Source: Balamuthia mandrillaris (Eukaryota). From it: a DNA stretch of 64,000 nt. Under the pieces are notes generated by a model. The model was not told the DNA's origin, did no database searches, and was given only the letters and a program-made list of their open reading frames with translations. Numbering within the stretch: the stretch's first letter is position 1; each line of letters opens with the position of its first letter. Shown piece by piece: positions 4,149 through 14,818 of the stretch. Position numbers and translations under genes: made by a program. The stretch lies in NCBI GenBank assembly GCA_031835245.2, contig JAVKOQ020000090.1, positions 1 through 64,000 on the forward strand, in the 5' to 3' direction.

Positions 4149-6631
4149 ATGAAACGTAACAGAGGGGAACTGAAGGAACACTACCAAACGCTAGAGCGAC
4201 AGCTACGATGCCAGCAACAGCAGCAGCAGCAACAGCAGCAACAAGAGAAGGCAGAAAACAAGCGACTGAAGCGCGTACGGCTTCGACAAGCGAAAATGAA
4301 ACGCAGGCACGTCTTTTTAACAGTATTATTGTTGTTATGTTGTTGTTGTTGTTGTTGTTCTTCTTCTTCTTGTTCTTCTTGTTCTTGTTCTTGTTCTTGT
4401 TCTTGTTCTTCTTCTTCTTCTTCTTCTTCTTCTTCTTCTTCTTCTTCTTCTTCTTCTTCTTCTTCTTCTTCTTCTTCTTCTTCTTCTTCTTCTTATTGGT
4501 TACCATAGGTTGTTTGGTTAACTTTAGGTTTGCTTTCCGCTTTTTGCTCCTCCTTTGTTCATATTGGTGGCATTGTTCTATGCAACTTGACCGACTGTTG
4601 AATTGCAAACGTAGACGAGCAGGGATTCACCTCTCACCTCCATTACCAAAGATAAAGCTACCATTACTTAGTAGCGAGGAAAAGTTACAAGTCCTGTGGT
4701 CAGCACCTCTGACTTTGGAAGAAAGCCAACAATCTGGCCCCTTTTCTTCTTATCGCTTGCTGTCCGCAAAAGACCTGCTGGACTCTTTCCAGTTTGAGGC
4801 CGAAGCTAGTACCCACAGCTTAAAACGACTTTTTCCCTGCAGCAGCAGCGGTGGCAGCAGCGGCGGCGACAAAAACAAGATGAACTCAAAGGCAGCTTAC
4901 AAGTAATTTCTCTTTCTTCTTCTTTATGTTTGTTCTACTCAATGTGTTTTCTTTTTTTCCGTTCTCCTGGTTTGTTCATTGTTTTTTTTCTTTCTTTCTA
5001 TCTCTTCTTTTTCTTTTTCTTTTTCTTTTTCTTTTTTTTTTTTTTACTTTGCTTGCTCTCTTGCTCGCTCGCTCACTCGCTCGCTCACGTTTTTGATAAA
5101 CAGGTTAGCTTATATTTATGTTCCAGTGGATAAGCAACTTAAAGAATGGAAAGAAAGGCATTGTCTCTCCAACCAAGACCTTCACTTGATTATGACCTCT
5201 AGCGGTGGGAACTTGGGCAAAAGAAACAACATTGCCAGTGCAGGGAAGGCAGCTGGCGTGGGAAAGCGACCAGGCACGGACAAAGGATACTTTGGGCTGT
5301 CATATACCCTTGCTCCACGTGGTCCAATTTTTCAGGAATGGCTTTCAAAATGGTGGACGCAGCAACCCTTGCAGTTGAGAACTAGAAGAGAGGAACAAGA
5401 AGAAATGGAGAAAAAGGAAAAGGAAAGTGCAACCACAAAAATGATAACAACAAAGAAGACCATGGAAGAGAAAGAGGAGGAGGAAGAGGAAGCGGACGAG
5501 GACGAGGACGAGGACGAGGAAGAGGAAAAGGAAGAGAACAAGGAAGAAGAAGAGGAAGAGGAAGAGGATAAGGAAGAGGAAAAGGAAAAGGAAGAGGAAG
5601 AGTCAGAAGAAAAACAAAAAGAAAAGAAAAGAAGCACTAGACCTCACTATCACCACAAGGATTTTCCCTACAAGGAACTAAGGAACTTGGAAACTCTCCG
5701 CCCAGATCTCTACGCTTCTTTCGAGTCGTTGGCTTGCATTTTGGCCGCAATAATGCAACAGCACTGCCAAAGGGCTTCAAAGTATCGAAAGAAAACCCTG
5801 AAGAGGCTTTTTTCAACAACTGTAGGAGCATCAATGTCATCTTCATCTCCATTATCATTCTCTTCCTTTTCCTTCTTCCCCTCCTCTTCCTCTTCGTTGT
5901 CATCATCCTCGTCATCATCATCATCATCATCATCATCATCATCATCATCATCATCATCATCATCAGCAGCACTGAAGGAAGGGATAAAGACATCAATAAA
6001 GTGGAAACGCTACCTAGAGGCCGTGGCCATCAGGATGGCCCACAGAGGTACTCTTCTAGGCCAAGGCTTTGCCACAAACCTTATTTTTAGTTGGAATTTT
6101 AGTTCAGCGCCACATGTGGATCCGCAAGATGATGCTAAGGGATTGGCCATTGTGGTTTGGTGGCGCGGTTGGGACCAAAGCAACCGCTGCCCCTACGGCA
6201 GTGATGATGGAAAGCATCGTGCAGCAGGAGAGGTATGGGCCTTTTTTTTCCCTCAATTCTATCGTGCAGTGCGCCTGCATGACCTGGCAACTATTATCTT
6301 CAATTCGGCTGAAGTGTGGCATGGTTCGATCTTTCAAAGAGCTCCGCATTGCACATGTTCAGTTTATGGCTCAATCTCCGCCTTGAACAAACGATTTTTG
6401 AGTGCAATGCACAAGAAAAAGAGCAATGATGACAGCCAGCAACAACAACAACTACCTCCATCACAACTACAACCACAACCACAACCACAACAGCAACAAC
6501 AAAAACAACCCCAACAACAACAACTCTCATCACCACTACTGCCACCACCACTATTGCAAGACTTAACACGATCCTTGTTTGAAATGGCCTCGTACTTTAG
6601 TGCCCCACGAACGACTACAACGACAAAATAA
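4149..6631 (+). CDS. TET/JBP-like 2-oxoglutarate/Fe(II) dioxygenase (3 exons: 4149-4306, 4528-4902, 5104-6631)
   Basis: The C-terminal region NFSSAPHVDPQDD...WAFFFPQFYRAVRLHDLATIIFNSAEVWHGS supplies the HxD (His 6113-6115) and distal His (6320-6322) iron triad in a context like fungal/protist TET/JBP enzymes. Both introns are phase-compatible: a GC-AG intron at 4307-4527 and a GT-AG intron at 4903-5103. Confidence 0.72.
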
Positions 6632-6662
6632 CAGTCAGCAGCAAGCAGATTAGAACAATTGT

Positions 6663-6984
6663 ATTGTTGTTGTTGTTGTTGTTGTTGTTGTTGTTGTCTT
6701 ATGTTGTTGTTGTTGTCTTATGTTGTTGTTGTTGTTGTTGTTGTTGTTGTTGTTGTTGTTGTTGTTGTTGTTGTTGTTGTTGTTGTTGTTGTTGTTGTTG
6801 TTGTTGTTGGTTGTTGTTGTTGTTGTTGTTGTTGTTGTTGTTGTTGTTGTTGTTGTTGTTGTTGTTGTTGTTGTTGTTGTTGTTGTTGTTGTTGTTGTTG
6901 TTGTTGTTGTTGTTGTTGTTGTTGTTGTTGTTGTTGTTGTTGTTGTTGTTGTTGTTGTTGTTGTTGTTGTTGTTGTTGTTGTTG
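6663..6984. repeat. (TTG)n microsatellite between the convergent dioxygenase and recombinase genes
   Basis: ~320 bp of nearly pure TTG repeats. Confidence 0.95.
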
Positions 6985-6989
6985 GATAT

Positions 6990-12254: not shown

Positions 12255-14100
12255 GCTATGTGGACTTGCTTCCTTGGATGGAAAAGCTCGCTGCTGATAC
12301 TTCTTCAGCAAAGAGATGAAACCAAGGGAGTAGGTCTGCGTGCATGACACAACAGCTGTGCGGACTTGCTTCCTTGGGCTGAAAAGCTCGCTGCTGCTGA
12401 TGCTTCATTCAGCAAAGAGATGAAACCAAGGGAGTAGGCCTGCATGCACTATGCAACAGCTGTGTGGACTTGCTTCCTTGGATGGAAAAGCTCGCTGCTG
12501 ATACTTCTTCAGCAAAGAGATGAAACCAAGGGAGTAGGTCTGCGTGCATGACACAACAGCTGTGCGGACTTGCTTCCTTGGGCTGAAAAGCTCGCTGCTG
12601 CTGATGCTTCATTCAGCAAAGAGATGAAACCAAAGGAGTAGGTCTGCGTGCGCTACGCAACAACTGTGCGGACTTGCTTCCTTGGGCAGAAAAGCTTGCT
12701 GCTGATGCTTCATTCAGCAAAGAGATGAAACCAAGGGAGTAGGCCTGCATGCACTATGCAACAGCTGTGTGGACTTGCTTCCTTGGATGGAAAAGCTCAC
12801 TGCTGATGCTTCATTCAGCAAAGAGATGAAACCAAGGGAGTAGGTCTCGCTGCTGCTGATGCTTCATTCAGCAAAGAGATGAAACCAAGGGAGTAGGTCT
12901 GCGTACGCTACACAACAGCTGTGCGGACTTGCTTCCTTGGATGGAAAGCTCGCTGCTGATACTTCTTCAGCAAAGAGATGAAACCAAGGGAGTAGGTCTG
13001 CGTGCATGACACAACAGCTGTGCGGACTTGCTTCCTTGGGCAGAAAGCCTGCTGCTGCTGATACTTCTTCAGCAAAGAGATGAAACCAAGGGAGTAGGTC
13101 TGCGTGCATGACACAACAGCTGTGCGGACTTGCTTCCTTGGGCAGAAAAGCTCGCTGCTGATGATGCTTCATTCAGCAAAGAGATGAAACCAAGGGAGTA
13201 GGCCTGTGTGCGCTATGCAACAGCTGTGCAGACTTGCTTCCTTGGATGGAAAAGCTCGCTGCTGCTGATGCTTCATTCAGCAAAGAGATGAAACCAAGGG
13301 AGTAGGCCTGTGTACACTACACAACAGCTGTGCGGACTTGCTTCCTTGGGCAGAAAAGCTCGCTGCTGCTGACACTTCATTCAGCAAAGAGATGAAACCA
13401 AGGGAGTAGGTCTGCGTGTGCTACGCAACAACTGTGTGGACTTGCTTCCTTGGGCAGAAAAGCTCGCTGCTGATGCTTCATTCAGCAAAGAGATGAAACC
13501 AAGGGAGTAGGTCTGCGTACGCTACACAACAGCTGTGCGGACTTGCTTCCTTGGACAGAAAAGCTTGCTGCTGATGCTTCATTCAGCAAAGAGATGAAAC
13601 CAAGGGAGTAGGCCTGCATGCACTATGCAACAGCTGTGAGGACTTGCTTCCTTGGACAGAAAAGCTAGCTGCTGATGATGCTTCATTCAGCAAAGAGATG
13701 AAACCAAGGGAGTAGGCCTGCATGCAATATGCAACAGCTGTGAGGACTTGCTTCCTTGATGGAAAAGCTCGCTGATACTTCTTCAGCAAAGAGATGAAAC
13801 CAAGGGAGTAGGGTCTGCGCAGATGACACAACAGCTGTGCGGACTTGCTTCCTTGGGCAGAAAAGCTTGCTGCTGATGCTTCATTCAGCAAAGAGATGAA
13901 ACCAAGGGAGTAGGCCTGCATGTGCTACACAACAGCTGTGCGGACTTGCTTCCTTGGATGGAAAAGCTTGCTGCTGCTGATGCTTCTTCAGCAAAGAGAT
14001 GAAACCAAGGGAGTAGGCTGTGCAGACTTGCTTTCTTGGGCAGAAAAGCTTGCTGCTGACGCTTCAGCAAAGAGATGAAACCAAGGGAGTAGGTCTGGCT
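12255..14100 (+). repeat. Tandem array of ~100-bp hairpin-forming units (19 copies of the CAGCAAAGAGATGAAACCAA anchor)
   Basis: Anchors at about 12306, 12410, 12510, 12614, 12715, 12816, 12869 (preceding unit truncated), 12968, 13070, 13174 ... 13989 and 14065. Units are mostly 96-104 bp. Confidence 0.95.
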
Positions 14101-14401
14101 GGGATGAAGGACAACATTCCTTTGAACCTGCTTACGCCCAGGCTTGATGCTGTTGCACCACCTGTGGTACGCGATGATCGGCAAACAAAAGAGCTGAAGC
14201 AAGAGTGGTAGTTCTGAGAGTGCATAAGATGTTCGGTTGGTTGGTTAGTTAGTTGGTGGTTCAAAAAAAAGAAACAAGAGAATGAGTTGAGAAGTAAGCA
14301 GGTTCCGAGCCAGCTTGTGTGTCGGTCCCCGAGGTCTTTATGGCTCTCATGTCGTCATGAAAGTCTCAAACATTTCGTCTCTTCCTTTTTCTCTTCTCAG
14401 C

Positions 14402-14655
14402 CTTCTGCTGCTTCCTCGCGTTCTCTGCCTCAGGCGGCTTCGCCGCCTTCGGCAGGTGGCCTTCAGCCACCCTCTAGAAGCCTGGTAGACCCACATTTTC
14501 AACAGAAAAAGTGGGAAAGCGACATTTGTCTCGCGATTCCACCGGAAATTGCACTTTTGCGGCCTTGGGCCGCTTCCTCGCGTTCTCCGCCTCAGGCGGC
14601 TTCGCCGCCTTCGGCAGGTGGCCTTCGGCCACCCTCTAGAAGGCCGGTAGACCCC
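14402..14655. repeat. Two ~90-bp direct repeats made of GC-rich TTC/GAA-loop hairpins
   Basis: CCTCAGGCGGC-TTC-GCCGCCTTCGGCAGGTGGCC-TTC-(A/G)GCCACCCTCTAGAAG...GGTAGACCC at ~14402-14492 and ~14570-14655. Two more degenerate copies lie at ~15660-15750 and ~15828-15912. Confidence 0.9.
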
Positions 14656-14818
14656 TAACCCTAACCTAAAAACTGACTCACATACATAAACTCACTCACT
14701 CATAGTAACTCTCCTCCTTTTTGACATCATTTTTGTTTTACTTTGTTTTCAACTGCTACCTTTGTGTTTATAGTTAATATTGCTTCCTTCTTTAAAACTT
14801 GTGCTGTTAGTCCTAACC

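Follow-up and report, generated by a model that had tools for sequence, protein, structure and literature searches.

Do two genes that meet close to a telomere of the amoeba Balamuthia mandrillaris belong to one mobile element? The question is raised by positions 1 to 64,000 of contig JAVKOQ020000090.1 (assembly GCA_031835245.2, forward strand), a stretch of 64,000 nucleotides (nt) referred to below as the window. An earlier note had proposed that the block 4149..14669 of this window is a new kind of mobile element, in which a TET/JBP-like dioxygenase and a tyrosine recombinase (YR) are accompanied by a tandem array of hairpins. Here we report that the locus is a real, apparently multi-copy telomeric cassette of previously unannotated appearance. 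Of its two genes, the TET-like one is credible and the YR one probable, though damaged. We lean slightly towards reading it as one copy of a multi-copy family of telomere-associated selfish elements, inserted by a YR into telomeric repeats and carrying its TET gene as counter-silencing cargo.

The telomeres of B. mandrillaris consist of TTAGGG, and its genome is described as holding many transposable elements whose annotation is poor (10.1101/2025.02.25.640156; here and below, papers are cited for the parts of their text that were accessible). Only about three TAACCC repeats are visible at 1-19 of the window, followed by degenerate telomere-like hexamers. Host-type spliced eukaryotic genes begin approximately 17 kb into the window.

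The convergent genes and the hairpin array

As proposed, the TET-like gene on the + strand and the YR-like gene on the - strand converge, with stop codons (6629-6631 and 6990-6992) separated by a gap of 358 nt, most of which is filled by a (TTG)n tract. The window was compared with contigs from public runs X1, X2, X9 and X11 (X15 being an RNA run). This comparison took in positions 3230-12200 except for the (TTG)n tract. The features of the TET-like side are as follows.

4149..4306, + strand: TET-like exon 1, from ATG 4149 to a putative GC donor
4615..4902, + strand: TET-like exon 2; its joint to exon 3 (4902 to 5104, GT..AG ends) is spliced in an X2 contig
5104..6631, + strand: TET-like exon 3, with the oxygenase domain and its acidic and poly-Ser inserts, from sequence comparison and alignment
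6664..6984, no strand: (TTG)n tract separating the two stop codons, from repeat analysis

The three exons join into 657 amino acids with no internal stop. From 4607 onwards, X2 and X11 contigs fit the window except for one letter, and ahead of that point they carry 87-176 further letters, as a GC-AG splice would lead one to expect; the first intron (4307-4614) accordingly appears to be a GC-AG intron. A phmmer search with the TET-like protein across 1.84 billion representatives (E<=0.001) returned five matches: a Balamuthia paralogue, the zinc-finger repeat protein P0005, which was dropped as spurious, and three homologues (P0003, P0004 and P0006) that match the C-terminal domain at 31-36% identity. 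P0004 (E 1.1e-6 in this search) exceeds the PF20515 cut-off (30.6 vs 27 bits) and matches Tet_JBP weakly as well, and P0006 matches PF20515 below the cut-off. A profile built from the three homologues gives the TET-like protein 82.6 bits, a score to be read in the knowledge that they had been found with that same protein. In the alignment with P0003, P0004 and P0006 the iron-binding triad HxD...H is intact (H486 at 6113, D488 at 6119 and H555 at 6320), none of the four rows departs from His at the third triad position, and the protein and its homologues also have an LRPDL motif upstream in common.

Pfam, PHROGs, NCBIfam and PDB sequences yielded no direct TET profile match, none of 188 candidates from a word-indexed protein search with the TET region was relevant, and two AlphaFold models of the domain reached a predicted local distance difference test (pLDDT) score of only 38 and 37, fold searches with them being uninformative. 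There are nevertheless good sequence grounds for predicting that the + gene encodes a TET-like oxygenase, assigned transitively through PF20515, and the dioxygenase of the earlier note stands to that extent, with its triad intact and its family membership one step removed. The nearest relatives are KAL6077216.1 of B. mandrillaris (76% identical) and its cluster member KAL6041725.1, TET-like paralogue fragments on two other contigs of this species (425,734 and 19,405 bp). P0003, P0004 and P0006 look in their own right like a distant TET-like group, poorly detected by Pfam and marked by the motifs LRP(D/Q)LW and NYSxAxHxD.

The YR-like gene is read on the opposite strand and consists of the following parts.

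11609..11869, - strand: YR-like exon 1, from ATG 11869, in an X11 contig
10607..11398, - strand: YR-like exon 2, of low complexity; joint 11396 to 11607 in X11
10198..10454, - strand: YR-like exon 3, predicted; 6 synonymous and 5 non-synonymous differences in one diverged copy
9782..9980, - strand: YR-like exon 4; donor at 9781 in X11
9419..9598, - strand: YR-like exon 5; the in-frame acceptor at 9598 is predicted, and X11 has 9582, out of frame
8479..9186, - strand: YR-like exon 6, with G-G-L-R-R (R606 at 9060), a Lys-rich hairpin region and IPLP...VRPSLL, motifs read by eye
8526..8530, - strand: frame break between the upstream 799-residue frame and the downstream open reading frame (ORF), beside a (GAG)n run, from translation
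6990..8537, - strand: downstream ORF with the C-terminal catalytic half and a low-complexity tail, from Atlas leads and residues read by eye

Six exons and five canonical GT-AG introns, the first of them spliced in an X11 contig, give 799 amino acids in a frame that stays open as far as its end near 8479. The remainder of the protein lies in a second frame (6993-8537), and the break between the two falls near 8528. For the C-terminal half, the closest Atlas entries are eukaryotic hypothetical proteins with feature scores of 0.93-0.94. Feature matches at 0.92-0.94 include an NDC10_II set (2 of 30 matches, the family being found on 25% of members) and a Phage_integrase set (3 of 30), and the nearest structures are integrase clusters, at a template modelling (TM) score of 0.46-0.50 from a model with pLDDT 0.43. 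A YR-like fold in the C-terminal half is thus a lead. Reading the R-H-R-Y tetrad by eye against YR motifs, we take R (9060), R (8231) and Y (8108) to be kept, the downstream ORF presumably contributing P-I-Q-Y-R (R 8231), L-L-N-V (V 8135) and Y 8108.

The YR-like protein has no match in Pfam, GCR1_C included, nor among PHROGs, NCBIfam or PDB sequences. Word-indexed searches recovered only the window's own protein among 81 candidates for the C-terminal half, and nothing relevant among 17 for the middle region in longer proteins. What survives of the proposed recombinase is a YR-like fold as an Atlas lead, with no direct profile match and with its frame broken near 8528. Profile searches assigned no other fold to either protein.

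Divergent from the YR-like gene, the array begins at 12249-12251, some 380 nt upstream of its ATG, close to the 400 bp or so first claimed.

12249..14098, + strand: tandem array of 97-104-nt hairpin units, with 17 unit starts and 18 left arms

The array stem of ~20 bp folds well on the + strand only (mean z -4.4 for 20 hairpin units, vs -0.6 on the - strand) because it relies on G.U pairs. Variants per column across units number 0.42 and 0.65 in the arms vs 1.52 in the loop, two-sided compensatory changes occur in 0 of 29 stem pairs, and 7 of 17 units share a mismatch at the same place in the stem. The array has no Rfam match at E<=1, and neither arm matches elsewhere in the window at <=3 mismatches. 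The strand-specific hairpin, its stem of ~20 bp and arms steadier than the loop agree with what is required of a microRNA (miRNA) precursor, for which a duplex of ~21 nt is expected, and our best guess from these features is a pre-miRNA-like cluster transcribed away from the YR-like gene. MiRNAs exist in Acanthamoeba (PMC11014262). Rfam miRNA matches at 16332-16453 and 3069-3152 were rejected as a palindrome and a simple repeat scoring far under the gathering thresholds. Two viral loci that match a 17-nt array word were set aside because the likeness ends at 17-21 nt.

Copies, selection and the ends of the unit

Contig depth, which is uncalibrated for copy number and has a rough baseline, reaches 629-815 in X1 for near-identical contigs of the TET-like gene and 334-580 for those of the YR-like gene. 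With a median of 42 across 14 unrelated contigs caught via simple repeats, this amounts to ~15-19 and ~8-14 times the baseline, respectively. In X9 the near-identical class of both genes lies mostly at 18-27 and the diverged classes at 31-107, near background. The TET-like and YR-like genes vary in depth together across runs and apparently form a multi-copy family; the single-copy state that would have told against the earlier proposal is not what the runs display. Contigs of 3230-3987 are likewise present in X1 (deep), X2, X9 and X11, and depth in X1 climbs rightward from about 285-900 at 3.2-3.9 kb to 1500-3000 at 11.9-12.2 kb, which matches what distal truncation would produce. At 11860-12200 the summed X1 contig depth is 1500-5800, far over that of the genes, and this lead-in to the array may be a widespread chromosome-end repeat.

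Differences between copies were counted in the rows displayed (40 of 147 and 40 of 177), of which 29 coding rows for the TET-like and 35 for the YR-like gene were used, after removal of 11 rows in the left flank, two in an intronic repeat and three from an unrelated gene; the rows are a tool-chosen and non-independent subset. With a synonymous fraction of ~0.28 expected, the displayed TET-like rows hold 20 synonymous and 9 non-synonymous differences (p ~1e-5), and the YR-like rows 17 and 18 (p 0.006-0.01). Because of this synonymous excess between copies, the sequences indicate that purifying selection acted on both genes while the copies diverged. Pattern scans of viral and metagenome contigs with YR, TET, P0003 and P0004 found no relative, such scans detecting close relatives only, and tblastn against phages and plasmids gave nothing relevant.

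The ends of the unit are defined by the following features.

1..80, + strand: three TAACCC telomeric repeats and degenerate hexamers, candidate left junction of the unit, from the sequence
2307..3990, no strand: purine-rich degenerate tandem repeat without a clean ORF, apparently multi-copy, which may be part of the unit
14390..14659, no strand: structured terminal region with a duplicated ~100-nt motif, GC-rich inverted repeats and 3-nt loops, ending GTAGACCCCTAAC
14653..14669, + strand: internal telomere tract CCCTAACCCTAACCTAA, right junction, from motif count and end comparison
14812..14820, + strand: telomere-like seed CCTAACCCT, at the point where the second, truncated copy breaks off on its left
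14819..15917, + strand: second, left-truncated right-end copy, with three hairpin units and the tail, ending GTAGACCCCTAAC

Lead-in, array and structured tail (12162-14659) recur in the second copy at 85-93% identity, with 3 units vs 17. Both right-end copies stop at the identical base, in CCCTAAC, after the same terminal sequence; beyond it the first copy continues into telomere repeats and the second into unrelated DNA. Both of the right ends present in the window (2 of 2) thus enter CCCTAAC at one base, which may reflect a single insertion register in the telomeric hexamer. The telomere-type seed expected at the end of the block was found as CCCTAACCCTAA at 14653-14664, which at <=1 mismatch is matched twice more at 4-21, making three matches in all across the window vs 0.12 expected, a count reached by 0 of 100 shuffles. 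As RNA, the terminal region folds strand-symmetrically (z -6.3 on + and -6.7 on -), and 14540-14660 folds as DNA with z -2.7; it is plausible that these last 270 nt hold recombinase or replication signals. A Helitron reading, suggested by a hairpin and CTAG near the right end, was dropped since CTAG is non-terminal and no Rep/helicase ORF is present.

The limits 4149..14669 given in the earlier note need to be moved. No feature singles out 4149 as the place where the unit starts, 3230-3987 on its left side appears multi-copy too, and the array and tail are met again at 14819-15917. CCCT is present at both candidate junctions, with telomere repeat on either side of the unit, which at its simplest may extend from the telomere (~20) to 14659, the right end beyond it being older and distally truncated. 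Of the shared boundaries that the earlier note had called for, the right one is common to two copies at a telomere-like junction, and a left end was seen once.

Self-comparison revealed no terminal inverted repeat (TIR), that is, no inverted match between the two ends. In an ORF survey, neither 1-4200 nor the rest of the block contained anything resembling a capsid, ATPase or polymerase gene, and the survey and Pfam together gave no reverse transcriptase (RT)-like ORF or RT/RNase H match in the block. No KDZ transposase (CxC and RNase H-fold) was among the Pfam matches of the 13 and 10 segments scanned. The CpG ratio is slightly low in both genes (0.60-0.66 vs 0.79 for 17-64 kb) and 0.32 in the array, and was given no weight.

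Further observations concern the flanks. The repeat at 2307-3990 has periods of 136 nt and ~41 nt and CGGT tracts; 3230-3884 is covered by X2 contigs at a depth of 139-212 and, as X2 shows splicing, may be transcribed. A 57-nt direct repeat (98% identity) lies close to the telomere at 601-726. On the other side, a near-perfect 120-nt palindrome (92%) at 16333-16452 resembles a fold-back scar at the border between subtelomere and host genes, and sits where two opposed, related coiled-coil-like ORFs meet (16175-16465 on + and 16314-16673 on -). Among the spliced genes further in, 18331-20859 (+) is an intronless ORF of 843 codons that looks by eye like a ferric reductase or NADPH-oxidase-type membrane protein.

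Insertion, duplication, domestication or viral descent

Under the favoured reading, a unit of up to ~14.6 kb, from the telomere to 14659, would have been inserted into telomeric repeats by the YR-like gene product. An intact YR elsewhere in the family would pair the ends of the element with telomeric repeats through a short core, CCCT(AA), integration would proceed in Crypton fashion via a circle and leave short internal telomere tracts, and repeated addition combined with distal erosion would yield truncated right ends such as 14819-15917. The present copy would probably be non-autonomous. Its predicted TET-like enzyme would oxidise methylated cytosine or thymine and thereby counter host silencing, and the array would be transcribed on the + strand, from a promoter shared with the YR-like gene, into small RNAs. 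If true, this would constitute a new pairing for eukaryotic mobile DNA, of YR integration with TET cargo and a hairpin cluster, and would place beside TATE another, independent example of YR insertion aimed at telomeres. For B. mandrillaris, a little-studied human pathogen, it would also predict that silencing depends on methylation and that the DNA contains an oxidised base, and it could account for strain-variable chromosome ends in this species. The locus itself supplies a distant TET-like enzyme missed by Pfam.

A number of findings weigh against this reading. The YR assignment comes solely from Atlas leads, graded by the Atlas below its family-naming bar, and the catalytic domain in this copy is split between frames near 8528. 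The sole contig across intron 4 (X11) uses an acceptor 16 nt further on, which leads to a stop at residue 524. Ten possible GT-AG pairs would bridge the frame break, all with weak donors and none with read support, the comparison with reads having passed over 8481-8606. Given the frame break, the out-of-frame acceptor and these weak, unsupported bridging pairs, the YR-like gene of this copy probably does not encode an active recombinase. In a 31,260-bp contig, a database protein that is identical to the downstream ORF begins past the break; this is consistent with a like frame break in another record but does not prove it. Both catalytic His, as we take them to be placed, look replaced, the first by Ile (8240) and the second His/Trp by Val (8135). 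The 3 in 100 of RNA run X15 that were read contained 89 partial matches, none of which truly derives from the YR stretch. None of the listed runs that contain the sequence is recorded as RNA, which says nothing about expression. In TET-type enzymes a distal Arg binds 2-oxoglutarate; the corresponding position is Val in the TET-like protein and Arg in P0004, and the Arg is absent in P0003 and P0006. P0002/P0007, the paralogue proteins of B. mandrillaris, seem to have undergone deletions and frameshifts. The two genes are never found together on one contig, and the diverged YR contigs in X1 (95-364) are much deeper than the diverged TET contigs (55), a gap pointing to copies of mosaic make-up and to recombination among chromosome ends. 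Finally, the left junction was seen once and is degenerate, and the CCCT core, itself part of the telomere repeat, is so short that it may be due to chance at a telomere.

Several of these findings are shared with the alternative that survives best, a strong rival, though one which we place on the unlikely side: passive subtelomeric segmental duplication, comparable to yeast Y' or Acanthamoeba subtelomeric mosaics, via ectopic recombination and break-induced replication, in which YR and TET genes left by an old element no longer move the segment. The internal telomere tracts would then be scars of healing or exchange. Such a history would suit the broken YR gene with its out-of-frame splice, the unequal depth of the diverged YR and TET classes in X1, the numerous near-identical copies, which suggest homogenisation, the telomere seed where the second copy breaks off on its left, which resembles healing, and the fold-back of 120 nt at 16333-16452. 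Acanthamoeba subtelomeres indeed carry duplicated, chimeric foreign DNA that lacks mobility functions of its own (PMC12210455). It is harder to reconcile with a right end that is common to the base and has a structured terminus, and with the synonymous excess in the YR-like gene, which implies that the gene was functional while copies diverged.

The selfish-element reading can also be carried further, to an autonomous family of telomere-targeting DNA transposons without capsid or RT, which would combine YR integration into TTAGGG with an active TET and a polycistronic small-RNA cluster directed against silencing. We regard this fuller version as unlikely.

An improbable third account is host domestication, with the TET enzyme writing a base-J-like (sub)telomeric mark, the YR-like protein acting as a dead, Ndc10-like DNA binder and the hairpins being host miRNA genes. 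The TET-like gene is intact, spliced and under the stronger selection, the Atlas lead to NDC10_II and the His replacements point in the same direction, Crypton YRs have repeatedly been domesticated (PMC3212892), and the miRNAs of Acanthamoeba (PMC11014262) lend the hairpins a precedent. However, the big depth differences between runs and the decayed paralogues fit a selfish family better, and the candidate Arg, Arg and Tyr are retained. Most improbable of all is a reduced remnant of an endogenous Polinton-like virus (PLV) or other DNA virus that kept only a YR integrase and a Tet-like gene: YR integrases are frequent in PLVs, about half of the Alpensee/GKS2 group carry a Tet-like gene (10.64898/2026.06.19.733378) and the unit is of PLV size, but no capsid, ATPase or polymerase-like ORF accompanies the two genes in 1-4200 or the rest of the block, both have spliceosomal introns and host-like low-complexity tracts, and the scans of viral contigs, sensitive to close relatives only, returned none.

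Comparison with known systems

Viruses already offer a partial precedent for the pairing of YR and TET, since reports on PLVs describe YR integrases as well as Tet-like genes. A Tet-like gene is present in ~50% (Alpensee/GKS2) and 29% (VC40) of PLV genomes, with a proposed anti-silencing role, and YR is a common PLV integrase, co-occurrence of the two in a single genome being unconfirmed in the accessible text (10.64898/2026.06.19.733378). The accessible portions of PMC4738411, PMC12477816 and PMC11244446 contain nothing on the pairing, and no capsid-less, RT-less telomeric YR+TET element was found in a literature search that mostly lay outside subscription journals. The claim of novelty in the earlier note is thus narrowed, as far as this search reaches, to a capsid-less YR+TET element, and PLVs, TET-carrying transposons and TATE supply precedents for its parts. 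The present block shares both gene types with PLVs, but these are defined by capsid proteins and a packaging ATPase, of which the block has none, and its genes contain introns.

TET/JBP genes are reportedly carried by transposons (Iyer et al. 2014). Such cargo is described in fungal KDZ elements, in Chlamydomonas DNA-1_cRei (CMD1) and in Helitron2, with a proposed anti-silencing role (10.1101/2022.06.16.496473), and TET-carrying elements are also treated in PMC8889193. The block resembles all three in carrying a TET/JBP-type gene as element cargo. Those elements rely on KDZ transposases, on HUH/helicase proteins or on no known transposase with TIRs and 8-bp target-site duplications, whereas here the partner is YR-like and no TIR was seen.

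Cryptons encode a YR without RT, have no TIRs, are flanked by direct repeats of 4-6 bp and are proposed to move through a circle intermediate (PMC3212892). The block is like CryptonF/S and others in its YR-like gene without RT/RNase H and its lack of TIRs, as well as in the Atlas lead to NDC10_II, Ndc10 being Crypton-related. It differs in its far larger size, its TET cargo and array, its link to the telomere, an R-H-R-Y tetrad that is incomplete (the first His appears to be Ile) and the missing GCR1_C match.

TATE of Leishmania braziliensis encodes a YR and is present 20-30 times, clustered in tandem near the ends of chromosomes and inserted at a single position of the telomeric hexamer (PMC2696322, PMC6681497; see also PMC6390901). 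TATE differs from the block in being a retroelement with RT/RNase H, neither of which is seen here, and in having, as described in the accessible parts of PMC2696322 and PMC6681497, neither TET cargo nor a hairpin array; the insertion register of the block is also based on two right ends and one degenerate left end. With a YR-type gene at telomeric hexamers, TATE is nevertheless the nearest match in target, and provides the precedent for a YR element at this site.

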